Virus record (IMG/VR): IMGVR_UViG_2703719369_000026
DNA from: a virus
Taxonomy: Duplodnaviria; Heunggongvirae; Uroviricota; Caudoviricetes
DNA: 14,832 bases
Reading direction: 5' to 3' (one strand)
Positions 1,385 through 14,832 of the stretch are shown piece after piece (the stretch's first letter is position 1; each line of letters starts with the position of its first letter). Both the position numbers and the translations under genes were made by a program. The notes beneath the pieces are model-generated. The model saw only the letters and a list, made by a program, of their open reading frames with translations, was not told the DNA's origin and did no database searches.

Positions 1385-2035
1385 TTACAAATTAAAAAAC
1401 GCCCTAGAAATGACACCGCCTACCAAAACCCCTACGCAGATAAAGAATATTATTTCTTTTGGATAAAGTCGGATTAATTCTGAAGCACGAAGTCGGACTT
1501 CTGGTAAGGTCGAACTCTCTATGTGGCTTGATGCCGATTGTTGCTCTAACCACGACAATGCAGACTGTAACTGAGAACGAGTAAGATCGTTTAAACGTCC
1601 TGTACCGAAATTGATATGGCAATACCGCAGAAGTTTTTGTCGAAGTCCACAGTCTTCACTGTTACGTAGTAATAAACTTACAAGAGCCTTACAGGCATCA
1701 TGATCTTTACATCGCTCAAGCATTGCATGCAGAAAACTCTCCGCTGTTTTATATTGATTTACTGTCATATCATCAATACCAGCTACACCAATCTCCGCAT
1801 GTACTTTTTGCCAAATAATAAACGCTTCAGTATTGCTAGCTTCTGCAATAGCAGCAACCAAGCTATTTAGCTCCTTACGCTGAGCCTTAAGCAAAGGGCG
1901 ATCGTCATCATCATTATTCGAAGGGATTGCGATATTGACGGTATGAGAACCATCATATCGCTCTATCTGAATATTCTTTTCGTGAAAATCACGCCCAGCA
2001 ACGCGATTGTTTGAACCGTTTGAGTTGACGGCCAT
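1385..2035 (-). CDS. Hypothetical tail-anchored membrane protein (single C-terminal TM helix)
   Basis: 216 aa. The soluble N-terminal part includes a poly-Asp stretch (NNDDDDR), and the extreme C-terminus is about 20 hydrophobic residues (IIFFICVGVLVGGVISRAFF). Strong GGGAGGTG ribosome-binding site immediately upstream. The N-terminus repeats a motif found at the C-terminus of the upstream HTH protein. Confidence 0.6.
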   Translation of the reverse strand: MAVNSNGSNNRVAGRDFHEKNIQIERYDGSHTVNIAIPSNNDDDDRPLLKAQRKELNSLVAAIAEASNTEAFIIWQKVHAEIGVAGIDDMTVNQYKTAESFLHAMLERCKDHDACKALVSLLLRNSEDCGLRQKLLRYCHINFGTGRLNDLTRSQLQSALSWLEQQSASSHIESSTLPEVRLRASELIRLYPKEIIFFICVGVLVGGVISRAFFNL

Positions 2036-2464: not shown

Positions 2465-2488
2465 TTGACAGGTATCTTTTTTGATACC
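2465..2488. promoter_or_regulatory. Candidate operator/promoter: TTGACA hexamer followed by a perfect inverted repeat GGTATC-TTTTTT-GATACC
   Basis: Read directly from the sequence: TTGACA at 2465-2470, GGTATC at 2471-2476, a T6 spacer, GATACC at 2483-2488. It lies in the 75-bp divergent region between the XRE repressor gene and the rightward genes. The -10 element and strand assignment are not resolved. Confidence 0.4.
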
Positions 2489-2530
2489 AAAATGATTTCA
2501 CGAGCTATTAGATGATCACAATATACCACT

Positions 2531-2737
2531 ATGAAACAAGTTCTTCACGATACCAGATCACGCATTCCGCGTAACACCGCCACAGGTCCAAGACTGGCAC
2601 TTCGGCTGTCCCTCGAGGAGCGAGCCGTCATTGATGAAATGGCAGCTAAAGAACAACGCTCATCCTCTAACATGGCGCGCATGATCTCCCTTCGCGGCCT
2701 AGAGCTAACCCAGAAAGAACAAAACAAATCTTCCTGA
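2531..2737 (+). CDS. Putative ribbon-helix-helix DNA-binding protein
   Basis: 68 aa with an RHH-like beta-strand plus two helices (RLALRLSLEERAVIDEMAAKEQRSSSNMARMI). No clear Shine-Dalgarno sequence, so it may be leaderless or weakly translated. Confidence 0.4.
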   Translation: MKQVLHDTRSRIPRNTATGPRLALRLSLEERAVIDEMAAKEQRSSSNMARMISLRGLELTQKEQNKSS

Positions 2738-2753
2738 TCAGGAGGCTAGTGGG

Positions 2754-2957
2754 ATGTCAGGTATAACCATCAATATCAATGTGAATGCCCCCTATGTATC
2801 CCTGCAGAAATATGCAGAGATAACAGGTATCCCTCTTAATACATGCAAAAAGATGTTGGCTGACGGTCGAATTATTATCCGCCCCAAACGCGCCAAAATG
2901 GAAAAGCCTGAAGTAAACCTTGTGGCGATGTTAAAAGACGCTTTGGCTAACAGCTAA
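2754..2957 (+). CDS. Putative Cox/Apl/Xis-like small HTH protein (excisionase or early regulator)
   Basis: 67 aa. AGGAGG ribosome-binding site 8 nt upstream. The motif YVSLQKYAEITGIPLNTCKKMLADGRI resembles the excisionase-type HTH. Its position, first clear rightward gene opposite the repressor, matches cox/apl. Confidence 0.5.
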   Translation: MSGITININVNAPYVSLQKYAEITGIPLNTCKKMLADGRIIIRPKRAKMEKPEVNLVAMLKDALANS

Positions 2958-2978
2958 AACAATGAACAGAGCACCATC

Positions 2979-3329
2979 ATGAAAAAAAACGCTAATAATC
3001 CATACTCCAAATTTCGTAATGGCGTAGAACGCCATGTACACCACGTCGCTACCAGTGCATCACGTAGTAACAGTCGCTATAACCTGAACGAGACGCATGC
3101 AACACCGGATGGCCACGCTGTAAAACAAATCGGCGAACATGCCTGGCTGATTGAGAAAGCTGGAATCGTGGTCCACAAATGCCCACGCAATCCGTTTACC
3201 GGGAACCGCATTTTTGCATTGAACTGCGGCGACAATCACTTCGGGCAGGATTTCACATTATACGAAGCACTTCGCACGGTTGATCGTCTGCTTCGCGGGC
3301 AAAGTTTTATTAAACAGGCTGATTTATAA
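2979..3329 (+). CDS. Hypothetical early-region protein
   Basis: 116-aa ORF in the rightward gene chain; no recognisable domain. Confidence 0.45.
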   Translation: MKKNANNPYSKFRNGVERHVHHVATSASRSNSRYNLNETHATPDGHAVKQIGEHAWLIEKAGIVVHKCPRNPFTGNRIFALNCGDNHFGQDFTLYEALRTVDRLLRGQSFIKQADL

Positions 3330-3339
3330 CAGGTGCTTT

Positions 3340-3618
3340 ATGACCAAAGAGCATGCACAAGGTGTATTTATCCGTTTTATTGATTTTCGCGGTGAACTGT
3401 TATTACGCGCATCAGCCATTGACGGAATTGTTCCATCCGAAAAAAACGCAGCTACTTACGTTTATCTGAACGGTACGCGCCTGACTGTGGAGCTTCCGTA
3501 CCAGACCGTACGAGAAATCATTAGCGAAGCTGAAAAGGCTCGTCAGGTTAATGGCGATGAACCCTATATCGAAATTATTTGTATGGATTCAGAAGCTGAA
3601 ATTCAGAAAGCAGATTAA
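3340..3618 (+). CDS. Hypothetical protein
   Basis: 92 aa starting at the ATG at 3340, which has an AGGTG ribosome-binding site. The longer 3280 start in the ORF track would overlap the previous gene by about 50 nt. Confidence 0.5.
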   Translation: MTKEHAQGVFIRFIDFRGELLLRASAIDGIVPSEKNAATYVYLNGTRLTVELPYQTVREIISEAEKARQVNGDEPYIEIICMDSEAEIQKAD

Positions 3619-3629
3619 AGGGCGTTGCG

Positions 3630-3872
3630 ATGGGCAAAGAATATAAAACTCTCATTAACAAAGCACCTGAACGATTTTATTTTCGCTTAAGTGCATCAGG
3701 CGCTCATGCTGAACGTGCAGCCCGTGACTCATTGACCAGGGCAATCCGGAGTTTGTATGACGTTGCTTTTTACGCTGATGATCTGGATGCACTTAACGAA
3801 CTTTCCGAGCTGATCTGTGCCGCAGAATGCGGGGAACACATTGAACCATATAAGCTGGGGAATATCGCATGA
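3630..3872 (+). CDS. Hypothetical protein
   Basis: 80-aa ORF. Its stop overlaps the next start (ATGA at 3869-3872). Confidence 0.5.
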   Translation: MGKEYKTLINKAPERFYFRLSASGAHAERAARDSLTRAIRSLYDVAFYADDLDALNELSELICAAECGEHIEPYKLGNIA

Positions 3873-3982
3873 GTATATTTATCTCATGGCTTGTTCTGAT
3901 TATTTCGGTGGCCTGCGCCATTGGGATTATGCGAATTATTCATTCAGTAAAAAAGATTGAACGCTTTTTCACTGACAAATAA
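3869..3982 (+). CDS. Putative 37-aa single-TM membrane peptide
   Basis: Not in the ORF track because it is under 60 aa. Translated by hand as MSIFISWLVLIISVACAIGIMRIIHSVKKIERFFTDK: a hydrophobic helix followed by a basic tail. Its start is coupled to the upstream stop (ATGA). Confidence 0.35.
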   Translation: MSIFISWLVLIISVACAIGIMRIIHSVKKIERFFTDK

Positions 3983-4074
3983 CAGCTTAAACAGAACACC
4001 AGATTAAACCCGAAAACCTGAAAACTATCCGCATTCGCGGAGGTATTCGCACACGTAAATAACGGAGATATAAA

Positions 4075-4491
4075 ATGAACGCAAAAGAAAAAAATATTAT
4101 CAATACATTAAAAATAGTGTCAGCAGAGCAAGACAAGCTGTCCAGGGCAGCCCAGAAAGATAATCAACATATGGCAGCGCTTTACGCACTGACCATCGCA
4201 ATAGCCACCCCTGAAGCAGCCAAAGTTATTGAGGAACAGAGCAAAGAAATCGACACTCTTAAAACACAGTCAACAGTTGCAGCCATGAATCCGTCCAGCA
4301 TTGGACGCTGCATTTATATTCTTGGTTCAGCAATGATGCTGCAATACACCATTATTGCCGAACTGCACGGCAAATACCTGATAACGCCTTACCACACAAA
4401 AGAGTCAGAGCTTCTGACAAATCTCCGCCTGATAGAACGCTCTCAAGCTGTATTCATTGATGACGCGCAACGTGCCGTATTTAACGCATAG
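4075..4491 (+). CDS. Hypothetical protein
   Basis: 138 aa with a GGAG ribosome-binding site; no recognisable domain. Confidence 0.5.
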   Translation: MNAKEKNIINTLKIVSAEQDKLSRAAQKDNQHMAALYALTIAIATPEAAKVIEEQSKEIDTLKTQSTVAAMNPSSIGRCIYILGSAMMLQYTIIAELHGKYLITPYHTKESELLTNLRLIERSQAVFIDDAQRAVFNA

Positions 4492-4514
4492 GGTTACTGG
4501 ACAAAGGGGGCGCA

Positions 4515-4718
4515 ATGGCAATTAAGCATTTTCCCGTCGTTCGCTTTACCTCCAGAGGGCGCGAATACGAGGTCGACGAACGCCTGATTACCACTATCGA
4601 CAAACATCGTTCGGAAAAGGATGCACACCACATCTACCTCACTGACGGCACTTACTTCTGCGCCACCAACGTGGCGCGAGTAAATCTTATCCGACAGGTA
4701 CAGGAGCCACGCAGATGA
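4515..4718 (+). CDS. Hypothetical small protein
   Basis: 67 aa with a strong AAAGGGGG ribosome-binding site. First gene of a three-gene translationally coupled chain. Confidence 0.5.
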   Translation: MAIKHFPVVRFTSRGREYEVDERLITTIDKHRSEKDAHHIYLTDGTYFCATNVARVNLIRQVQEPRR

Positions 4719-4981
4719 CCATTCTGGACTACATCGCTACTCATCCGGGGTGTAGCGGCGGAGAGATCGCCGCAGCACTGAATACCCCAACCACAGCCAT
4801 TAATGCTGAGTTACGCCGACTTTGGCGCGGCGGCTTAGTCATCAGAACAAACCGCAGCACAGGTGGTCGCGCTCGCAAAACAGGAGGCCAGGCTTCTTAC
4901 CACGTAAACCCGATGCCGTTCGGGTGTAGCAATCCACTTACTCACATGTTTAACCAGCTACTGAAGGAAGCCAGAGCATGA
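4715..4981 (+). CDS. Putative winged-helix DNA-binding protein
   Basis: 88 aa. AGGAG ribosome-binding site and ATGA overlap with the upstream gene. The N-terminal segment (DYIATHPGCSGGEIAAALNTPTTAINAELRRLWRGGLV) resembles a wHTH. Confidence 0.5.
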   Translation: MTILDYIATHPGCSGGEIAAALNTPTTAINAELRRLWRGGLVIRTNRSTGGRARKTGGQASYHVNPMPFGCSNPLTHMFNQLLKEARA

Positions 4982-5277
4982 GCACCATCAACCACCAGAA
5001 GCTACGCGAACTGGCATTTGCCCTGCAACGAATGGCAACGCCTCAAAAATTACTGGCATTTCGCGCAATGCTCTCGCCGTCTGCTGTGCTGGCACTGCTG
5101 GATCAGCTGGAGCACGCCAGAACCACGGCTCCTGCCATTCGCCTCACGCTCCATCATGAAATCGCTGATTTCTGCGCAACGCTGGGGGCACCTGGCGAAC
5201 CGGAAACGCCGGAAGCAATGCAGCAAGAGCTGCTGCAACGCATCGATAACGTTTTTGATTTTTTTCTGAACCAGTAA
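4978..5277 (+). CDS. Hypothetical protein
   Basis: 99-aa, helix-rich ORF with an ATGA overlap to the upstream gene. Confidence 0.5.
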   Translation: MSTINHQKLRELAFALQRMATPQKLLAFRAMLSPSAVLALLDQLEHARTTAPAIRLTLHHEIADFCATLGAPGEPETPEAMQQELLQRIDNVFDFFLNQ

Positions 5278-5399
5278 GAAACCAGAACATGCACACACAA
5301 AAAAACCGCTTGCCATGCCGCAATCGGTCAGGTTACATTTCCGCTGCACCTCATAAAACGGGTGCCGGGATTCTCAACCCGATACAGAGCAAAGCGCAT

Positions 5400-5420
5400 A
5401 ACCGCGCTAGCGGTTTTTTT
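5400..5420 (+). terminator. Candidate intrinsic terminator (hairpin plus T-run)
   Basis: AACCGC-GCTA-GCGGTT stem-loop at 5400-5415 followed by TTTTTTT through 5420. It lies about 125 nt downstream of the 4978-5277 gene. Confidence 0.45.
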
Positions 5421-5599
5421 GTGCGTACTGTATTGCCACGTCTTTTTCGCGTCAGAATTATGGCGGGGCGTACGGGGCCGACTTCGGTCGGGCCGGATTC
5501 TTTGCTCTCCGGTGTTGAGAACCCTGTACGTCTCGCCACCCCGAGATTCTCAACTCTGGATGGTGAGTTATTTCTATCACCGAGCAAAGAGGCCACACC

Positions 5600-5830
5600 A
5601 TGGCAGACCGCAAACAGCACCGCGCTATCGCGGAGCGTCGTCACATCCAGACTGAAATCAACCGCAGACTTTCCCGCGCATCACGCGTCGCGCAAATCAT
5701 GCACATCAATATGCTGCATGAGCGCAGCCACGCACTATCAAACATTTATTCCGCCTCTGTTTTCAGCTATCTGGCGGATGATCTGCACGAGTTTCAACAG
5801 CTCATCCAGCAGCAAAACAAACTCCATTAA
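5600..5830 (+). CDS. Hypothetical small basic protein
   Basis: 76 aa with an AAAGAGG ribosome-binding site 7 nt upstream. It is preferred over the overlapping 205-aa ORF at 5289..5906, which crosses the hairpin structures. Confidence 0.4.
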   Translation: MADRKQHRAIAERRHIQTEINRRLSRASRVAQIMHINMLHERSHALSNIYSASVFSYLADDLHEFQQLIQQQNKLH

Positions 5831-5902
5831 TTCCTGTTCCGGGCCTTTCCTGCACCTTGCGGCGGGAGGCCTTCGCACATCTGTAACAAGAGGATTGCCG
5901 CA

Positions 5903-6268
5903 ATGATTCTCGCCAACGACTTTCTTGAATACCTGCTCAACACAGAACGTGATCTTGCCGCTCGCGTGCGTGATCGTTATGACATGTACCTGAAATCCCT
6001 GCCTGTACCGCAGCTCGCTGACGGAAAGATTGTTATTGATGGTCGCTACATGATTGACAGCCACGAGGGAAATTACAGGCTTTACCGCATTGAAGGTGGC
6101 ACCCCGTCCGTTATTGGCATTTACCAGCGCCCATCCTCTGCAATCGTCGATGTGATTGCCGACAGCATCCGCATCACACATCGCCATGCCGACACAGAAG
6201 ACACCGTGCTGGAAATTCAGCGGCTGGCTACAGCCTGCCGCGACACCCTGAATGGCATGACGAAGTAA
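5903..6268 (+). CDS. Hypothetical protein immediately upstream of the replication initiator
   Basis: 121 aa with an AGAGGA ribosome-binding site. It sits where P2 carries gene B, but no similarity to B was recognised. Confidence 0.5.
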   Translation: MILANDFLEYLLNTERDLAARVRDRYDMYLKSLPVPQLADGKIVIDGRYMIDSHEGNYRLYRIEGGTPSVIGIYQRPSSAIVDVIADSIRITHRHADTEDTVLEIQRLATACRDTLNGMTK

Positions 6269-6274
6269 ATCACT

Positions 6275-9097
6275 ATGACGGCAGAGTACATCAGGGACTG
6301 GCAACAACCGCGCCACGCAGTGGGGCGTGAAGGAACGGGGATCCCCGCTCCTGAATCCGCGCTTTCCTCCTGGCTGGATGCCTACCGGGTAGAGAACGAG
6401 CGCCGCCAGGAAATGGCTGATGCGGCGTTCTCCGCAACGCCGCTGGGCAACCTGATTAATAAAAGCCTGGACGCACAGGAAAAACAGGACAAAACCATCA
6501 CACTGGCAGGAGACGCCAGAAAACAGGCACGCGGTGCGGTGGATGAAGCCATGGCCTCGCTGCGCCTGCTGCCGTCCTATCTGCGCGATCCGCTTATTCG
6601 CCACCTCTCCTTCCTGCGCAAAAAACAGGAAGCCGATCGTCAGAAAGGCAAAAAGAGCTGGCAGGCTGAACGCTACGCGCGCGGAAACCTGCGCAAAATA
6701 TTCGAACGTCTGGAGCGCACCGATCACCGCTGGCTGACACAGGGTTATCGCTCCCTTGCCGGACGCGAACGCCTGGACGATTTGCTTTACCTGCCGCAGC
6801 TCAACAAACACCAGATACAGACGCTGGCCACCATGACGGCGGCGATGTTCAGCAGCACCTTCGAAAAACTCTGCGATGGCTTTGGCGCGACCGATGGCGA
6901 ACTGACCATGGATGTAACGCTGAAGGCGTATCAGATGCTGGCCCGCATGGCGTTACACCTGCACGCCATGCCTCCACATTATGACGCACTGACAACAGAC
7001 AAAGACCGGAGGAACGAACCGGACACGGAGCTGCTGCCGGGCGCAATCCTTCGCCTGACCTGTGCGGAATGGTGGAAACGCAAACTGTGGCTGTTACGTT
7101 GCGAGTGGAGAGAAGAACAACTCCGCGCCGCCTGTCTGGTTTCCAGAAAAACATCGCCCTATCTGAGCCAGGACGCGTTAAGCGAGTTTCGCGCACAGCG
7201 CGAGAAAACACGCGATTTCCTGAAAAGTTTCATGCTGGAAAACGAAGACGGGTTCACGATTGATCTCGAGACAGTGTATTACGCGGGAGTAAGTAACCCG
7301 GTTCACCGTAAGGCAGAAATGATGGCCACCATGAAGGGGCTGGAACTTCTGGCCGAAGCCCGTGGCGACAAAGCGGTGTTTCTGACTGTCACCTGCCCGT
7401 CAAAATACCACGCTACAACAGAGAACGGTCATCCGAATCCCAAATGGAACGGGGCCACCATGCGCGACTCCAGCGATTACCTGGTTAACACGTTTTTTGC
7501 GGCGGTCCGCAAGAAACTGAACCGCGACGGCCTGCGCTGGTATGGCATCCGCACGGTGGAGCCTCACCATGACGGCACCGTGCACTGGCATATGATGGTC
7601 TTTGCTCATCCGGAAGAAATCGACACCATTGTGTCCCACACCCGCGATATTGCCATTCAGGAAGATCGTCACGAGCTGGGCGATGATATTACTCCGCGCT
7701 TTAAGGCGGAGTATGTCGACGGCTCAAAAGGCACGCCAACCAGCTACATCGCCACCTACATCGGAAAAAACCTGGACAGCCGCGCCGTGGATGGCATCGA
7801 CCCGAAAACAGGCAAACCACGCGTTGACCACGAAACCGGAAAATCAATGACCGAGAGCGTGGAACGCGCCATTGGCTGGGCGCGCCTTCACCGGGTCCGC
7901 CAGTTCCAGTTCTTTGGCATCCCCTCCCGTCAGGTGTGGCGTGAACTGCGTCGCCTTGCCAGCCAGATGGCACGCAACCCGGAAGGCCCGCAACGGCTGA
8001 AGGATGACGCAATGGATGCGGTTCTTGCTGCCGCTGATGCCGGATGTTTTACCACCTACATTGAGAAACAGGGAGGCGTACTTGTTCCACGCAAGGACTA
8101 CCTGATTCGCACCGCCTACGACCTCGCAGATGAGCTGAACGATTACGGCGAACAGAGCGTACAGATTTACGGGATCTGGTCACCACTCATCGGGGAATCC
8201 TCCCGTGTGTGCACGCACCCGGATAACTGGAAGCTGGTAAGACGTAAACCGGGAGTAGAAGACAGCGCCCGCGAAAATGGTTTTGACCTTCAGGGCGGCC
8301 CTGCCGCCCCTTGGACTCGTGGCAATAACTGTCCCCGTGTACAGGAAACGGACAACAACGGGACAGAACAGCCGGAAGAACGGCCAGCACCGTGGCCGCA
8401 GCTTCCTGACGGCGTTGACGTGAACGAATGGATGCGCTCACTGAAACGGCACGAACGCCGGGCGCTGATGCGTTCGCTTCGTGACAAACAGGCAAAAAAC
8501 AGCAGTGATGAAATGCAGAGCTGGACACAGAGCCGCAAACAGCAGCGGCCTTTGCCTGATAACCACGAATTACTCGCTAAAGAATGGCGGGAGTCTGCTG
8601 AATCTCTCGGCCTGCATATCGGTGAACAACAGATGCAGCACCTGTTACGGGGCGGCAGTCTGTACGTTGACGGCAGCATCATTGCACCGCAGGGATTTGA
8701 AATTGTACGCAAACCGGATACCCGCCCGGACAGCCGAATCACGCAGCTCTGGCAGCGCCTGAGCCGTAATCATGGCGTAAGCAGCACGGAGATCCGCCAT
8801 AACCCGGTCGCCAGCTATCTGGCACAGCTGGGGGCATCAGACCCTGAAGCCGCCGCACGCCTGGCATCCACACTTCAGCAGGACCAGAACACCATGAAAA
8901 CACCCGTTACCGTGCTTTCTGACATGCTGCGCGCCATCCGCGACGCAGAGCACGCACAGAGAATCAGTGAAACCACTGAACGCGCCAGCCGCAAAGCAGA
9001 CCTGCTGCGGGGTGGCCTGACCAGTGGAAACAAAAAACAGACAGAAACGGGACTCACAAATCCCGTAAATGAGCAAAAAACGCGCCGCGATATATGA
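6275..9097 (+). CDS. Rolling-circle replication initiator/endonuclease, phiX174/P2 gpA superfamily
   Basis: 940 aa. HUH motif VHWHMMVF encoded at about 7580-7603, and a paired-tyrosine active site SYIATYIGK (YxxxY) with the tyrosine codons at 7745-7747 and 7757-7759. It is about 180 aa longer at the C-terminus than the roughly 760-aa P2 A protein. Confidence 0.88.
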   Translation: MTAEYIRDWQQPRHAVGREGTGIPAPESALSSWLDAYRVENERRQEMADAAFSATPLGNLINKSLDAQEKQDKTITLAGDARKQARGAVDEAMASLRLLPSYLRDPLIRHLSFLRKKQEADRQKGKKSWQAERYARGNLRKIFERLERTDHRWLTQGYRSLAGRERLDDLLYLPQLNKHQIQTLATMTAAMFSSTFEKLCDGFGATDGELTMDVTLKAYQMLARMALHLHAMPPHYDALTTDKDRRNEPDTELLPGAILRLTCAEWWKRKLWLLRCEWREEQLRAACLVSRKTSPYLSQDALSEFRAQREKTRDFLKSFMLENEDGFTIDLETVYYAGVSNPVHRKAEMMATMKGLELLAEARGDKAVFLTVTCPSKYHATTENGHPNPKWNGATMRDSSDYLVNTFFAAVRKKLNRDGLRWYGIRTVEPHHDGTVHWHMMVFAHPEEIDTIVSHTRDIAIQEDRHELGDDITPRFKAEYVDGSKGTPTSYIATYIGKNLDSRAVDGIDPKTGKPRVDHETGKSMTESVERAIGWARLHRVRQFQFFGIPSRQVWRELRRLASQMARNPEGPQRLKDDAMDAVLAAADAGCFTTYIEKQGGVLVPRKDYLIRTAYDLADELNDYGEQSVQIYGIWSPLIGESSRVCTHPDNWKLVRRKPGVEDSARENGFDLQGGPAAPWTRGNNCPRVQETDNNGTEQPEERPAPWPQLPDGVDVNEWMRSLKRHERRALMRSLRDKQAKNSSDEMQSWTQSRKQQRPLPDNHELLAKEWRESAESLGLHIGEQQMQHLLRGGSLYVDGSIIAPQGFEIVRKPDTRPDSRITQLWQRLSRNHGVSSTEIRHNPVASYLAQLGASDPEAAARLASTLQQDQNTMKTPVTVLSDMLRAIRDAEHAQRISETTERASRKADLLRGGLTSGNKKQTETGLTNPVNEQKTRRDI

Positions 9098-9173
9098 AGC
9101 GCGCACAAAACAGGCAAAAGCGGGATTTAAAAATCCTGTAACCGATTAATTAATCAACATAAGGAAAAGCGAC

Positions 9174-10133
9174 ATGAAAATTTGTATCGACGACGGCTCC
9201 ACCAACATCAAGCTGGCATGGACTGAGAACGGCGAACGCCGCAACGCCATCAGCCCGAACAGCTTCAAGTCGGAATGGTCTGCGCCATTCGGTGGCACGC
9301 AGCCCGCGAACTACATGCTTGATGGCGTGCGCTATGGTTTTGATCCGGTCAGCGATCGCTTTGTCCAGACGACCGACACGCAATACCAGTACAGCGATGT
9401 GAATGTAATTGCCATTCATCACGCGCTGGTCAAATCAGGCATCACACCACAGGAAGTGGATGTGGTTGTCACCCTGCCACTGAGCGAGTATTTCGATACA
9501 AACGCACAGCCGGACATGGCCAACATCAACCGCAAAAAAGCGAACGTCATGCGCCCGGTGGAGTACCAGAACGGCGAAGCATTCACTATCCGTAACGTAC
9601 GGGTTATGCCTGAATCCATTCCTGCTGGCTTTAAGGCACTGGCTGACATGAGTCCGTTTGAATCCCTGCTGATTGTGGATTTGGGCGGAACCACGCTGGA
9701 TGTGGCAAAGGTTCAGGGGCAACTGGCAGGTATCAGCCAGGTGTTTTGCGATCCACACGTAGGCGTTTCTCTGATGGCCGATGCCGTACTGTCGGTGATG
9801 GCCACTAACGGTATGCGCACCAGTCACCACATCGCCAATACCATTATCGAACATCGCCATGATGAAGCCTGGCTGCGCCAGCACATCCACAATGACGCGC
9901 ATTACGCCAGCCTGATGGCGGTTATTCGTGAAAAGGAAGAAACACTGAAACAACGCGTGATCCGCGCGCTGGCGGTTTTTTCGGGTTACGGGCGGGTGAT
10001 GGTTGTCGGTGGCGGGGCGGAGATTGTGGCAACCGCTATCCGCGAAGCCTGCGGAGTTAATGCGACTTTCATCGCGGACGGGGTGCCACAGTTTGCTCTG
10101 GTTAATGGGTTGTACGCAATGAACAAGGAGTAA
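9174..10133 (+). CDS. parM: ParM/StbA actin-like segregation ATPase (type II partition)
   Basis: 319 aa, alignable by eye along its full length to R1 ParM. Actin-fold motifs are present: IDDGSTNIKL (phosphate-1), VDLGGTTLD (phosphate-2) and VVGGGAE. AAGGA ribosome-binding site. Confidence 0.92.
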   Translation: MKICIDDGSTNIKLAWTENGERRNAISPNSFKSEWSAPFGGTQPANYMLDGVRYGFDPVSDRFVQTTDTQYQYSDVNVIAIHHALVKSGITPQEVDVVVTLPLSEYFDTNAQPDMANINRKKANVMRPVEYQNGEAFTIRNVRVMPESIPAGFKALADMSPFESLLIVDLGGTTLDVAKVQGQLAGISQVFCDPHVGVSLMADAVLSVMATNGMRTSHHIANTIIEHRHDEAWLRQHIHNDAHYASLMAVIREKEETLKQRVIRALAVFSGYGRVMVVGGGAEIVATAIREACGVNATFIADGVPQFALVNGLYAMNKE

Positions 10134-10137
10134 ACCA

Positions 10138-10452
10138 ATGACGACACCAACCAGACGGATAAGTTTCTATCTGAAGCCCGCCGCCGTCAAGAGTGAACAG
10201 GAGGCGTGCAATTACCTCGATAGCCTGCCAGCCTCCGAACGCAGCCGCGCGCAACGCGCGGCCTTTCTGGCTGGGCTAGCACTCATAAAGCGCAACCCAG
10301 CATTTGCCTACTGGATGGCCGAATGGCCAGAGGACAACCTCCCCTTCAATACCGTTAGCATCAAGGAAACATACCAGGCTAATCAGCCTAGCGGAGTTGA
10401 ATGCAATTTTTATAAAATAAAAAAGAATATTCAGACCTTATTCCCAGAATAA
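10138..10452 (+). CDS. parR: ParR/StbB centromere-binding adaptor
   Basis: 104 aa starting 4 nt after the parM stop. The N-terminal RHH region (ISFYLKPAAV ... LDSLPASERSRAQRAAFLAGLAL) matches the R1 ParR pattern. Confidence 0.85.
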   Translation: MTTPTRRISFYLKPAAVKSEQEACNYLDSLPASERSRAQRAAFLAGLALIKRNPAFAYWMAEWPEDNLPFNTVSIKETYQANQPSGVECNFYKIKKNIQTLFPE

Positions 10453-10471: not shown

Positions 10472-10926
<455 letters not shown>

Positions 10927-10979
10927 TAAAGTTATGTTCCTGACGTATGTATTCGTCCCGCAGGAATCAACCAACTGAT

Positions 10980-11369
10980 TTATCTGAATTTATCATGCCC
11001 CTCAACTCTGATTTTATTCATCTTGTTTACCGAATCGGGTATATCTGATAACTGTCCCGATAAGACTTTTTGTTTCGCCAGCATAATCTCTTTTTCAAGC
11101 TTTTGAAGTTCTTTTATATAGTCATTCTTCCCTTCTTCATCAGCCGGTGAAATGCTCTCAGGAAGACGCTTCATTGACTCATCTACAGCATCATCCATTC
11201 TGTCAAGAGCTTCAAGAAGCTCCTTTTTATCCATTGATGACTGAAGTACACTCATATTCCTTGCAAGAACTTGCATGCTTTCATCAAGTTCTTCTGCCAC
11301 TGTAATCCCCCCACACAAAAAATATAATGCCATACCACAGCTGATTATAACTTTATTGCTTTTCTGCAT
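10980..11369 (-). CDS. cybC: Cytochrome b562 family protein (periplasmic, four-helix-bundle haem protein)
   Basis: 129 aa with a signal peptide. A Met near the mature N-terminus (AEELDESMQVL) and a C-terminal His (EGHDKFR) parallel the Met and His haem ligands of E. coli cytochrome b562. AAGGAG ribosome-binding site. Lies 43 nt downstream of the catalase-peroxidase gene. Confidence 0.75.
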   Translation of the reverse strand: MQKSNKVIISCGMALYFLCGGITVAEELDESMQVLARNMSVLQSSMDKKELLEALDRMDDAVDESMKRLPESISPADEEGKNDYIKELQKLEKEIMLAKQKVLSGQLSDIPDSVNKMNKIRVEGHDKFR

Positions 11370-11381
11370 AATTTCTCCTTC

Positions 11382-11404
11382 ATGAGGGAGGTGCCCTCCC
11401 TCAT
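11382..11404 (-). other. Intercistronic stem-loop between the catalase-peroxidase and cytochrome b562 genes
   Basis: Perfect 9-10 bp inverted repeat (A)TGAGGGAGG-tgc-CCTCCCTCA(T). It is not followed by a U-run on the coding (minus) strand, so it is unlikely to be an efficient intrinsic terminator. Confidence 0.5.
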
Positions 11405-11412
11405 CAGTTTTA

Positions 11413-13638
<2,226 letters not shown>

Positions 13639-13799
13639 TTAAGGGAAATTCGCATGTTGTATACAAAAGTCAACTTTATTGATGCAACAGGATATACCTA
13701 TTGCTGGGATAGATACTACAGACAAAAAATACTAAGGGGTTCCAAGCCGCAACTGACGATGCCGTTGAGTTCTGCGCAGACCTGAATATTCCCTTCTTT

Positions 13800-13985
13800 G
13801 TGGATGTCAGAAACAAAAAGCTGGTCTTCTGGTTTGTACGTGTTGATGACGAAGGGTATCCTGAAATAGCCCGCTGCACGGAGCGGGAGTTTGCGACCAT
13901 TCTTGCCGGTATCAGCGCCGGCGGCATGTACTGCCCGGAGTGTGGCACGGTTCACTGGCCGGACGGAGTTCCCCCGCCCTTCTGA
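13800..13985 (+). CDS. Hypothetical small ORF, possibly an IS91-family accessory ORF remnant
   Basis: 61 aa from a GTG start. The open frame extends upstream to 13713 without an ATG. Its stop overlaps the ATG of the IS91-like transposase (TGATG). Confidence 0.3.
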   Translation: MDVRNKKLVFWFVRVDDEGYPEIARCTEREFATILAGISAGGMYCPECGTVHWPDGVPPPF

Positions 13986-14420
13986 TGCTTCCCCGTTTTG
14001 CCGACATTTTTCAGCAGGGAAACCGCTGGCTTAACTGGCTGGAGAAACAACCGGAAGGTTCAGTGCGTCCGGTAGTCATTGAGTCTGTGACAAAAATCAT
14101 GGCCTGCGGGACCACGCTGATGGGGTACACACAGTGGTGCTGTTCATCTCCGGACTGCAGCCACATAAAAAAGGTCTGCTTCCGGTGTAAAAGTCGCTCC
14201 TGCCCGCACTGCGGAGTGAAGGCTGGCGCACAGTGGATACAGTATCTGCTGAGTCTGGTTCCCGACTGTCCGTGGCAGCATATTGTGTTCACACTTCCCT
14301 GCCAGTACTGGTCCCTGGTGTTCCACAACCGGTGGTTACTGGCAGAGATGAGCCGCATTGCTGCGGATGTGATACAGGAAATCTGCCGCCAGGCAGATGT
14401 GCGACTACGAACTCGAACCA
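13985..14420 (+). pseudogene. IS91-family (rolling-circle HUH-Y2) transposase, N-terminal fragment only
   Basis: N-terminal zinc-binding region typical of IS91 TnpA (VRPVVIESVTKIMACGT ... CSHIKKVCFRCKSRSCPHCG). The frame then gives way to IS3-family orfB sequence near 14420, so the catalytic HUH/Y2 domain is absent. Confidence 0.7.
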
Positions 14421-14424
14421 CAAT

Positions 14425-14832
14425 CTGCCAGTTGCGCCAAATCTGCTGAACCAGACGTTCGCTCCTGCAGCACCAAATCAGGTCTGGGTGGCGGACCTGA
14501 CGTATGTTGCCACACAGGAGGGATGGTTGTACCTCGCTGGCATCAAAGATGTTTATACGTGCGAAATTGTCGGCTACGCCATGGGAGAGCGCATGACAAA
14601 AGAGCTGACAGGTAAAGCCCTGTTTATGGCGCTCAGGAGCCAGCGCCCACCTGCCGGGCTAATCCACCACTCTGATCGAGGTTCACAGTACTGCGCATAC
14701 GATTACCGGGTCATACAGGAGCAGTTTGGTCTGAAAACATCAATGTCGCGTAAAGGTAACTGTTACGACAACGCTCCGATGGAAAGCTTCTGGGGAACGC
14801 TGAAAAATGAGAGCCTGAGCCACTATCGTTTT
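14425..14832 (+). pseudogene. IS3-family transposase orfB internal fragment, continuing beyond the window
   Basis: Hand translation in frame 1 gives NQVWVADLTYVATQEGWLYLAGIKDVY ... LIHHSDRGSQYCAYDY ... CYDNAPMESFWGTLKNE, a DDE integrase core. There is no upstream orfA or inverted repeat. The sequence differs from the IS629-like copy at 10484-10926. Confidence 0.8.

Follow-up and report, generated by a model that had tools for sequence, protein, structure and literature searches.

What do four small genes packed between positions 4075 and 5277 of a tailed-phage sequence contribute to the phage, and do they form an operon of their own? The stretch of DNA analysed (hereafter the window, 14,832 nucleotides, IMG/VR record IMGVR_UViG_2703719369_000026) is matched by O157:H7 chromosomes at 100% identity, and the P2-type prophage that RefSeq places at the identical locus runs on into portal, terminase and capsid genes. 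The nearest phages are P88, Shae_phiSM and other members of Xuanwuvirus. Judged from these sequence matches, the window is a P88-like prophage (Xuanwuvirus, P2 family) lying at yecA in Escherichia coli O157:H7. The locus is identical to one found in hundreds of sequenced O157:H7 genomes and is also present in described phages (P88, Shae_phiSM).

The initial annotation had described four small genes on one strand, the last three of them joined by ATGA start/stop overlaps, and the layout of the open reading frames confirms this description:

4075-4491, + strand: 138-aa gene (open reading frame; phrog_9338), cargo of variable slot 1
4515-4718, + strand: 67-aa gene (open reading frame; phrog_3459)
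4715-4981, + strand: 88-aa gene (open reading frame; MarR_2/HTH_24 match)
4978-5277, + strand: 99-aa gene (open reading frame; phrog_4144)

The overlaps lie at 4715-4718 and 4978-4981, while a 23-nt gap without overlap separates the 138-aa from the 67-aa gene. A Shine-Dalgarno-like motif is present at every start (GGAG, GGGGG, AGGAG, AAGGAA). RefSeq annotates the same four coding sequences at the identical locus, intact orthologues are found at 50-99% amino-acid identity, and pairwise dN/dS values across the four genes range from 0.05 to 0.72, with 0.05-0.33 wherever the window copy of the 67-, 88- or 99-aa gene is one of the pair. All four genes are under purifying selection. Taken together, the RefSeq annotation, the intact orthologues and the dN/dS values mark the four reading frames as real genes rather than chance occurrences.

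Nor are they ORFans, as had been supposed, since each belongs to a PHROG family and has hundreds of homologues; searches with the proteins of the block returned 64, 84 and 57 homologous clusters and 14 to 64 phage records. The four families are nevertheless restricted to P88-like phages of Escherichia and Citrobacter. Among 5426 complete E. coli genomes, 1335 (about 25%) carry the triad of 67-, 88- and 99-aa genes and 831 the 138-aa gene, so that a function, once assigned, would annotate many genomes. Remote-homology and fold searches leave the earlier statement that no function could be assigned essentially intact. Across Pfam, NCBIfam, PHROGs and PADLOC the sole functional labels for the four proteins are a generic winged helix-turn-helix (wHTH) and a sub-threshold Ead/Ea22 signal, and comparison with solved structures, by single sequence and by profile, gave generic wHTH matches only, for the 88-aa protein. 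The interval 4075-5277 contains neither Rfam families nor tRNAs, and no tandem repeat of note. The genes were already catalogued as conserved hypotheticals, and there is little new biology and no sign of an unusual mechanism in them. On balance we favour, with some reserve, the reading that they are an early-operon stretch of a P88-like prophage encoding dispensable early regulators or modulators.

The four genes do not behave alike. All genes of the early region are co-directional, in the order promoter-like site at about 2465, Arc-like, Cox-like, DUF4761, 92-aa gene, DUF4754, 37-aa membrane peptide, slot 1, 67-aa, 88-aa winged-helix, 99-aa Ea22-like, slot 2, IsrK, C4, epsilon-like, 121-aa gene, gene A and ParM. 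Within this order the triad keeps both its synteny and its ATGA overlaps across differing integration sites and immunity types, and every locus examined has it in physical linkage with gene A. A step in G+C content at about position 4500 separates the triad (0.54-0.56, the same as the A/ParM module) from the genes to its left. The three ATGA-coupled genes form a conserved core block of P88-like phages and are not cargo. Of the four genes, the 138-aa gene alone behaves as cargo: it has a G+C content below that of the genes to its right and fills a swappable slot, slot 1, as one of at least two unrelated alternatives. It is absent from P88 and from phage 520873, and in loci L009-L011 a 105-aa gene stands in its place; this was considered as a possible relative of the 138-aa protein, but the sequences are unrelated.

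The 138-aa protein consists of an N-terminal helical hairpin and a conserved C-terminal domain. In its AlphaFold2 (AF2) model residues 1-64 reach a pLDDT of about 90 and the C-terminal part lies below 50; the Rop-like hairpins retrieved by Foldseek were uninformative. Overall dN/dS is about 0.4, and the N-terminal half is more divergent (0.41-0.67) than the C-terminal half (0.18-0.35), although no value above 1 indicative of positive selection on the N-terminus was obtained. In some alleles the linker is lengthened by expanded repeats.

Such a gene raises the question of whether at least one of the proteins, most plausibly this one, inhibits a host or prophage defence, or some other host process, early in infection. 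The initial annotation had pointed out that P2/186-like elements carry regulators and anti-host genes at this position, and that much is borne out: P2-like phages have a documented, if minor, hotspot for accessory or defence cargo between int and gpA (PMC13586616), and fil and dhr of phage 186 are equivalently placed. The swappable slot with its unrelated alternatives, the divergent N-terminal half and the linker expansions would all suit an anti-defence or host-takeover gene. For the anti-defence role itself, however, we found nothing in support. There is no match in PADLOC, Pfam or NCBIfam, which is absence of evidence only, the PADLOC defence models yielding nothing beyond weak wHTH noise (E 0.009-0.02) with the four proteins; dN/dS in the 138-aa gene nowhere exceeds 1; anti-defence models of DefenseFinder found almost nothing in 1511 P2-like prophages (PMC13586616); and the 67-, 88- and 99-aa genes are conserved core rather than cargo. 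We therefore regard an anti-defence function as unlikely and retain the interpretation as early regulators or modulators.

The 67-aa gene always lies directly upstream of the winged-helix gene. AF2 models its product as a five-strand small β-barrel (pLDDT 86.8), a topology shared with Sac7d/Sso7d, Tudor and SH3-like small barrels. The best matches in the PDB have a TM-score of about 0.48 (rmsd 2.4 Å over 48 columns) and come without sequence similarity, so that the resemblance is one of fold class only; all Foldseek E-values for the model are at least 0.19 against the PDB and at least 0.016 against BFVD. The family is very narrow, with 17 matches in an exhaustive HMMER search of 1.84 billion representatives, which revealed neither a wider family nor a natural fusion. 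A 1016-aa repeat protein shares a short motif only and was judged a spurious relative. phrog_19053 hinted that the 67-aa and wHTH proteins occur fused ('Rosetta-stone'), but no confirmation was obtained, and the longer relatives of the wHTH protein are artefacts of frameshift or read-through.

The designation of one product as a winged-helix protein is upheld by the 88-aa gene, whose product matches Pfam MarR_2 (PF12802, 31.5 bits against a cut-off of 27) and HTH_24 (PF13412, 22.7 bits against 21.9); the MarR model proper remains sub-threshold (PF01047, 17.9 against 24.6). Profile searches of the PDB find the wHTH domains of MarR, IclR, ArsR, FeoC, PafC and CapS, and the best PDB match, the CapS domain 9Z71 (E 1.8e-4), reflects the domain only. 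The wHTH core thus resembles that of MarR-family regulators, but canonical MarR proteins, at about 140-150 aa, have N- and C-terminal dimerisation helices that are missing here. The Pfam match already spans residues 2-53, leaving no room for an N-terminal helix; relatives are all 79-88 aa long, and the C-terminus bears a conserved motif of its own, PFGCxNPLTxMFNQLLKEAR. By profile, then, the 88-aa protein is a stand-alone winged helix of MarR type. Lambdoid phages encoding Stx1 contain a homologue 44% identical to it, and there the wHTH and Ead-like genes are again near neighbours in the early-left region, with a single gene between them. A 193-aa gene adjoining the wHTH gene in those phages is unrelated to the 67-aa and 138-aa proteins.

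The 99-aa protein resembles lambda Ea22 over its N-terminal 45-50 residues (BLASTP, 45% over 47 residues, E 8e-6) and the Ead-like protein of Stx1 phages (49% over 70 residues, E 5e-17). Against the Pfam Ead/Ea22-like family (PF13935) it scores 20.2 bits, below the cut-off of 27, with residues 25-50 alone aligned. The middle of Ea22 is a long coiled coil and its C-terminal domain is dimeric (PMC10834534); its role is pro-lysogenic (PMC7093339, PMC10834534). In contrast to the 182-aa Ea22, the 99-aa protein shows no similarity beyond residue 50 or so and possesses neither the coiled coil nor the C-terminal domain. The two genes are alike in being early, dispensable-region genes of temperate phages. 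In phage 520873 the 67-aa and wHTH genes are kept while the 99-aa gene and the epsilon gene are absent.

Whether the block constitutes an operon can be considered from the signals around it. The best promoter match faces the cI-like repressor gene:

2465..2493, + strand: sigma-70-like promoter match, TTGACA-17-CAAAAT, 10/12 consensus

Its position is analogous to those of P2 Pe and 186 pR, which makes it a candidate early promoter (Pe) from which the whole rightward operon, and the four genes with it, would be transcribed. Consensus scans found no promoter-like site on the + strand from 3683 to 5310 and no terminator-like site on that strand from 3300 to 5393, the first being the IsrK terminator at 5400-5415. 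These promoter and terminator calls come from consensus scans in which promoter-like matches number no more than expected by chance. Since they place no internal + strand signal within the block, the four genes are a segment of a longer rightward early (lytic) operon extending from the Cox-like gene to the replication gene A. Of the 'compact early operon' first proposed, then, what stands is a compact set of early genes with translational coupling in a P2/186-type prophage, whereas the consensus scans gave the block no promoter or terminator of its own. The candidate terminator downstream fared similarly. It is real, with a stem AACCGCGCTAGCGGTT at 5400-5415 followed by a T-run, but it belongs to the small RNA IsrK and is not a dedicated operon terminator. 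The following features succeed the block:

5310-5339, + strand: isrK promoter-like site (consensus scan)
5346..5420, + strand: IsrK small RNA gene (Rfam RF01394, 63 bits against a cut-off of 50; full-length, including the terminator hairpin)
5400-5415 and T-run, + strand: IsrK intrinsic terminator, stem as above
5456..5543, + strand: C4-type antisense RNA (RF01695, 78.5 bits against a cut-off of 45)
5600..5830, + strand: 76-aa P4-epsilon-like 'derepression' (antirepressor-type) gene (PF25738, 31.9 bits against a cut-off of 27)

Two boxes within IsrK, ATTCTCAAC at 5370 and GAGCAAAG at 5387, make up one copy of the C4 target, and the loops of C4 are complementary to both, the complements lying at 5500-5507 and 5512-5520. 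A second C4 target comprises a box at 5546 and the Shine-Dalgarno region GAGCAAAGAGG, from 5582, of the 76-aa gene. Loops and targets covary in P88 and Shae, and the a1/b1 boxes differ also in L009 and L012. The 76-aa protein is 32% identical to P4 epsilon (E 6e-9). IsrK is accordingly predicted from these matches to open an IsrK-C4-antirepressor (P4 epsilon-like) module. With C4 loops set against upstream and downstream boxes, and with an epsilon-like gene, the module resembles P1 immI (c4-icd-ant), P4 CI RNA-epsilon and Gifsy-1 IsrK-orf45-AnrP. Unlike these, it sits inside an early operon of P2 type, immediately ahead of gene A.

The four genes immediately adjoin this module, and the conserved isrK promoter region begins 15 nt past the stop of the 99-aa gene. 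Their products might consequently be dedicated regulators of the module, with the winged-helix protein, for instance, controlling the isrK promoter. We consider this very improbable: 520873 has the 67-aa and wHTH genes without the 99-aa and epsilon genes, 0.5-1 kb of cargo intervenes in P88 and Shae, lambdoid IsrK/C4 modules work without the four genes (PMC4825925), and no repeated operator-like motif for the wHTH protein was found.

The module in the window has one element beyond those of its lambdoid copies, an upstream arm complementary to the IsrK terminator:

5293..5313, + strand: 21-nt arm of an inverted repeat; 90% complementarity to 5406-5426, which comprises the IsrK terminator's 3' half and T-run

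The arm starts 15 nt after the 99-aa stop. Six P88-like loci conserve it; lambdoid phages have no such arm ahead of isrK. We tentatively propose it as a candidate anti-terminator acting on RNA that reads in from the four genes, in which case the hairpin after the genes would be a promoter-selective gate and not the end of an operon. In transcripts of the early operon the arm would pair with the terminator's 3' half and U-run and so suppress termination, and transcription would continue across C4, the epsilon-like gene and gene A, while transcripts from the isrK promoter, which lack the arm, would terminate as short IsrK. If such a gate is real, the four-gene segment is the physical carrier of an anti-terminator coupling an early operon of P2 type to an RNA immunity module of P1/P4 type. 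In any case the early unit would not simply end at the IsrK terminator, which transcripts must pass if they are to reach gene A.

In position and orientation within the early operon the four genes correspond to P2 orf80-83 and to 186 gp31-34/orf84, which are likewise small, tightly packed and often overlapping, and the 186 ORFs at the equivalent positions are annotated 'not essential'. Yet phmmer --max comparisons of the four proteins with early ORFs of P2 and 186 (orf78-83, B, fil, dhr, gp31-34) gave E-values of at least 0.3 throughout, so that 'non-essential' is argued here from position. A faint signal of DUF5405 (P2 Orf83) is seen in the gene at 5903-6268, upstream of A. P2 and 186 lack both the IsrK/C4/epsilon module and ParM, which the P88-like group has. 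Under the reading that we favour, the four genes would be transcribed from the early promoter upon infection or derepression, and the ATGA-coupled triad would yield roughly matched amounts of a β-barrel, a DNA-binding winged-helix and an Ea22-like protein. These products would modulate, dispensably, the lysis-lysogeny decision or host physiology, in parallel with the lambda exo-xis genes, ea22 among them, and with the small non-essential ORFs that precede gene A in P2/186, and would be neither essential replication proteins nor a recognisable anti-defence system.

The G+C content and linkage that the triad shares with the replication module would also fit a replication-accessory role, in which the triad aids the gene A protein at the origin or recruits host replication proteins, replacing gene B of P2. 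The winged helix is a common origin-binding fold, and a comparison covering 12 proteins of the early region (Arc-like to 121-aa gene) detected no homologue of P2 B. But 186, in which the small ORFs ahead of A carry a non-essential annotation, has no P2-B homologue either, lambdoid Stx1 phages, whose replication system is different, have wHTH and Ead-like genes as well, and variable cargo and the IsrK/C4/epsilon module separate the triad from gene A. A replication-accessory function seems improbable on these grounds, and the interpretation as early regulators or modulators is preferred to it. For annotation, what is gained is the membership of the four genes in the P88-like early operon, the distinction between a core triad and a swappable 138-aa cargo, the assignment of the terminator to IsrK, and the presence of an RNA-based (C4) immunity/antirepressor module between the four genes and gene A.

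Immediately ahead of the block lies a further conserved element:

3983..4074, + strand: 92-nt spacer after the 37-aa membrane-peptide gene, conserved, with GAAAAC repeats and a 5-bp hairpin at 4028-4041

A minus-strand promoter-like match at 4123-4096, together with a hairpin at 4041-4028, suggested an antisense small RNA against the start of the 138-aa gene. This was rejected, as loci lacking the 138-aa gene keep the hairpin and the promoter-like matches occur only at chance number. The spacer is kept in six phages regardless of which gene follows, the cargo of slot 1 being inserted directly 3' of it. It also contains a period-8 repeat (4006-4025), and its hairpin shows a compensatory change, TCCGC/GCGGA against TCCGT/ACGGA.

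The block consists of four plus-strand genes, seen both in the list of ORFs and in the raw sequence:

4075-4491, plus strand: 138-aa gene
4515-4718, plus strand: 67-aa gene
4715-4981, plus strand: 88-aa gene
4978-5277, plus strand: 99-aa gene

The raw sequence shows ATGA start/stop overlaps at 4715 and 4978, a 23-nt gap between the 138- and 67-aa genes and a Shine-Dalgarno motif at each of the four starts, bearing out the initial annotation, which had the 67-, 88- and 99-aa genes (here the triad) joined by ATGA overlaps. All four are genuine protein-coding genes: the RefSeq CDSs at an identical Escherichia coli O157:H7 chromosomal locus are the same four genes, intact orthologues are found at 50-99% amino-acid identity, and pairwise dN/dS is 0.05-0.72 over the four genes (about 0.4 for the 138-aa gene). 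It is well supported that they are early-operon genes of a P88-like prophage, comprising a conserved, translationally coupled triad and one swappable cargo gene. They are ordinary, previously catalogued conserved hypothetical early genes.

Positions 1 to about 10450 of the window match, at 100% identity, a P2-family prophage that O157:H7 chromosomes carry next to yecA. As annotated there, the minus-strand genes are integrase, DUF2511, a 216-aa gene and a cI-like repressor, followed by rightward genes, replication endonuclease A, ParM and portal/terminase/capsid. Among isolated phages, the closest belong to genus Xuanwuvirus (Peduoviridae) and include P88 and Shae_phiSM. Since the right end (about 10485 to 14832) instead matches the katP/IS region of plasmid pO157 with 100% identity, and the junction runs through an IS fragment with a run of N (ALIL pseudoknot, 10751-10867), the window is probably a scaffold join rather than a real chromosomal junction; in a complete genome the prophage runs on into two cargo genes, portal and terminase. 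The join has no effect on the four-gene finding.

Directly 3' of replication gene A, at 9174-10452, are ParM (StbA) and a Plasmid_stab_B protein, a plasmid-type partition pair in an integrating P2-family phage. At the other end, the cI-like repressor has a C-terminal tail (LNISGGNNRIAGRDYNE) that the product of the next gene repeats at its N-terminus (VNSNGSNNRVAGRDFHE; pairwise comparison, E 3e-5; 2069-2119 and 1982-2032, minus strand), possibly a remnant of a gene junction that was split or duplicated. The product of this next gene has 216 aa, similarity of a Flk-like kind (NCBIfam, E 8e-16) and a hydrophobic C-terminus.

Among twelve related loci compared, gene order is constant around two variable positions. 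DUF4761, a gene of about 92 aa, DUF4754, a 37-aa membrane peptide, a conserved 92-nt spacer and slot 1 are followed by the 67-aa gene, the winged-helix (wHTH, 88-aa) gene, the Ea22-like (99-aa) gene, slot 2, the IsrK/C4/epsilon module and gene A. The slot 1 insertion point is immediately past the spacer.

Contents of slots 1 and 2 (L009-L014, further related loci)
Slot 1, 138-aa gene: window, Shae_phiSM, L012-L014
Slot 1, 105-aa helical protein unrelated to the 138-aa protein: L009-L011
Slot 1, empty: P88, phage 520873
Slot 2, none: window
Slot 2, small membrane protein and SPFH/Band-7 protein: P88 (L002:3884-4914)
Slot 2, 183-aa HTH_11/Myb-like protein: Shae_phiSM (L003:4647-5198), L009-L011 (in L009, L009:6551-7102)

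The triad is matched in 1335 of 5426 complete E. coli genomes (at least 80% coverage in 1051) and the 138-aa gene in 831, about half of which show only its conserved 3' third at the DNA level. A sharp step in G+C near 4500, from 0.44 in the 138-aa gene to 0.54-0.56 in the triad, which resembles gene A, suggests a mosaic junction between modules. More widely, G+C is 0.41-0.47 from the immunity region up to and including the 138-aa gene, and from the 67-aa gene through gene A it is 0.54-0.59. The spacer itself (3983-4074) carries GAAAAC repeats with a period of 8, and positions 4028-4041 can form a hairpin of 5 bp whose pairing other phages keep through a compensatory change (TCCGC/GCGGA versus TCCGT/ACGGA). 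The spacer has no plus-strand T-run and could serve for processing, as a nut-like element or for binding a protein.

The 138-aa protein (phrog_9338) matches nothing in Pfam, NCBIfam or PADLOC, and its homologues, at 44-99% identity, come only from Escherichia and one Citrobacter phage. Their alignment has a variable N-terminal half, a conserved C-terminal domain and a linker in which some alleles have repeat expansions. In the AF2 model residues 1-64 form a confident helical hairpin (pLDDT about 90) and the C-terminal part is unreliable; Foldseek and PDB profile searches gave no specific match. The 67-aa protein (phrog_3459) forms a very narrow family, with 17 matches in an exhaustive HMMER search of 1.84 billion representatives; its gene is confined to Xuanwuvirus phages and always adjoins the wHTH gene. 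It is confidently modelled as a small five-strand beta-barrel (AF2, pLDDT 86.8) for which every Foldseek match had an E-value of at least 0.19 (PDB) or 0.016 (BFVD); in shape it comes closest to Sac7d/Sso7d and Tudor-like barrels (TM about 0.48).

The winged-helix protein of the initial annotation is confirmed as the 88-aa product, whose MarR_2 and HTH_24 core exceeds the Pfam cut-offs. Its family comprises stand-alone wHTH proteins of 79-88 aa with an invariant C-terminal motif, lacking the dimerisation helices of MarR, and a PDB profile search returned only generic wHTH domains. The N-terminal 45-50 residues of the 99-aa protein (phrog_4144) match lambda Ea22 (E 8e-6) and Ead-like proteins of Stx1 phages (E 5e-17), scoring under the cut-off of the Ead/Ea22 Pfam model; the protein has neither Ea22's coiled coil nor its C-terminal domain. 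The wHTH and Ead-like genes are also near neighbours, with one gene between, in Stx1 lambdoid phages, where they occupy the early-left region; they therefore move between temperate coliphages as a small module. None of the four proteins resembles P2 or 186 early ORFs. The remote homology and structure searches proposed earlier yielded a generic wHTH and a partial Ea22 likeness, and assigned no function.

We favour a reading in which the triad would encode dispensable early regulators or modulators, since one of its products is a DNA-binding winged helix and another is Ea22-like, it occupies the position of small P2/186 ORFs (annotated as non-essential in 186) and it has lambdoid relatives in the exo-xis-type region, where the genes modulate the choice between lysis and lysogeny (PMC7093339, PMC10834534). 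A rival would make the triad replication-accessory proteins. The anti-host or anti-defence role suggested earlier, or host takeover, is most credible for the 138-aa cargo. Among 1511 P2-like prophages the int-to-gpA interval is a minor defence-gene hotspot, with 8% of systems, and known anti-defence genes are nearly missing (PMC13586616). Overall, what the initial annotation observed is confirmed and its interpretation is only partly supported.

Its 'compact early operon' is not supported as a separate unit. All genes from about 2531 to 10452 share one direction, and consensus scans found no plus-strand promoter-like site from 3683 to 5310 and no plus-strand terminator-like site from 3300 to 5393, so that the four genes are best read as an internal part of a single long early operon. 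The top promoter match (2465-2493) faces the repressor gene, in the same position as P2 Pe and 186 pR. RefSeq places a 45-aa minus-strand ORF at 2545-2682, overlapping a plus-strand 68-aa ORF (2531-2737) annotated in the phage 520873 record as an Arc-like repressor, the first gene past the early promoter; the plus-strand reading fits the operon better.

The downstream candidate terminator does exist, as a hairpin (5400-5415) with a T-run, and belongs to the gene for an IsrK sRNA (5346-5420; Rfam 63 bits, cut-off 50). Next come a C4 antisense RNA (5456-5543; 78.5 bits, cut-off 45) and a gene for a 76-aa protein that falls in Pfam's 'Derepression' family and shares 32% identity with P4 epsilon. 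The loops of C4 show complementarity to a pair of boxes, ATTCTCAAC and GAGCAAAG, each present in two copies:

5370 and 5387: first copy, within IsrK
5546 and 5582: second copy, before the epsilon-like gene, covering its Shine-Dalgarno region

The boxes of P88 and Shae_phiSM differ from these, with changes matched in IsrK, C4 and target, and L009 and L012 have still other a1/b1 boxes; this implies several hetero-immune alleles. The module is of an already known kind, with the same logic as P1 immI, P4 CI/epsilon and Gifsy-1 IsrK-orf45-AnrP (PMC4825925). Here a P1-immI/P4-type RNA immunity module (5346-5830) sits within a P2-type early operon, directly 5' of replication gene A. That the four genes regulate this module is a weakened alternative, since phage 520873 has the 67-aa and wHTH genes without it.

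A 21-nt arm (5293-5313) lies 5' of the isrK promoter, beginning 15 nt past the 99-aa gene stop, and has 90% complementarity to 5406-5426, where the IsrK terminator has its 3' half and T-run. In the predicted fold with the arm, a long-range helix replaces the terminator (-52.9 kcal/mol, z -5.1); without it, the terminator forms. The arm is kept 5' of isrK in six P88-like loci, regardless of the preceding gene; four lambdoid isrK loci, in which no longer operon encloses the module, lack it. The two pairing arms are invariant across the loci compared and so offer no covariation signal. Complementarity, predicted folds and distribution suggest that the arm may be a promoter-selective anti-terminator letting early transcripts reach gene A.

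Pfam 'Phage_ASH' matches a 205-aa plus-frame ORF (5289-5906; 18.6 bits) overlapping the isrK and C4 RNA genes, and also the old P4 'cI ORF' (L008:8168-8584; 59.7 bits), which overlaps the P4 CI RNA. In L011 and L013 gene callers choose the Phage_ASH frame instead of the epsilon-like gene, and the family may largely be RNA genes translated.
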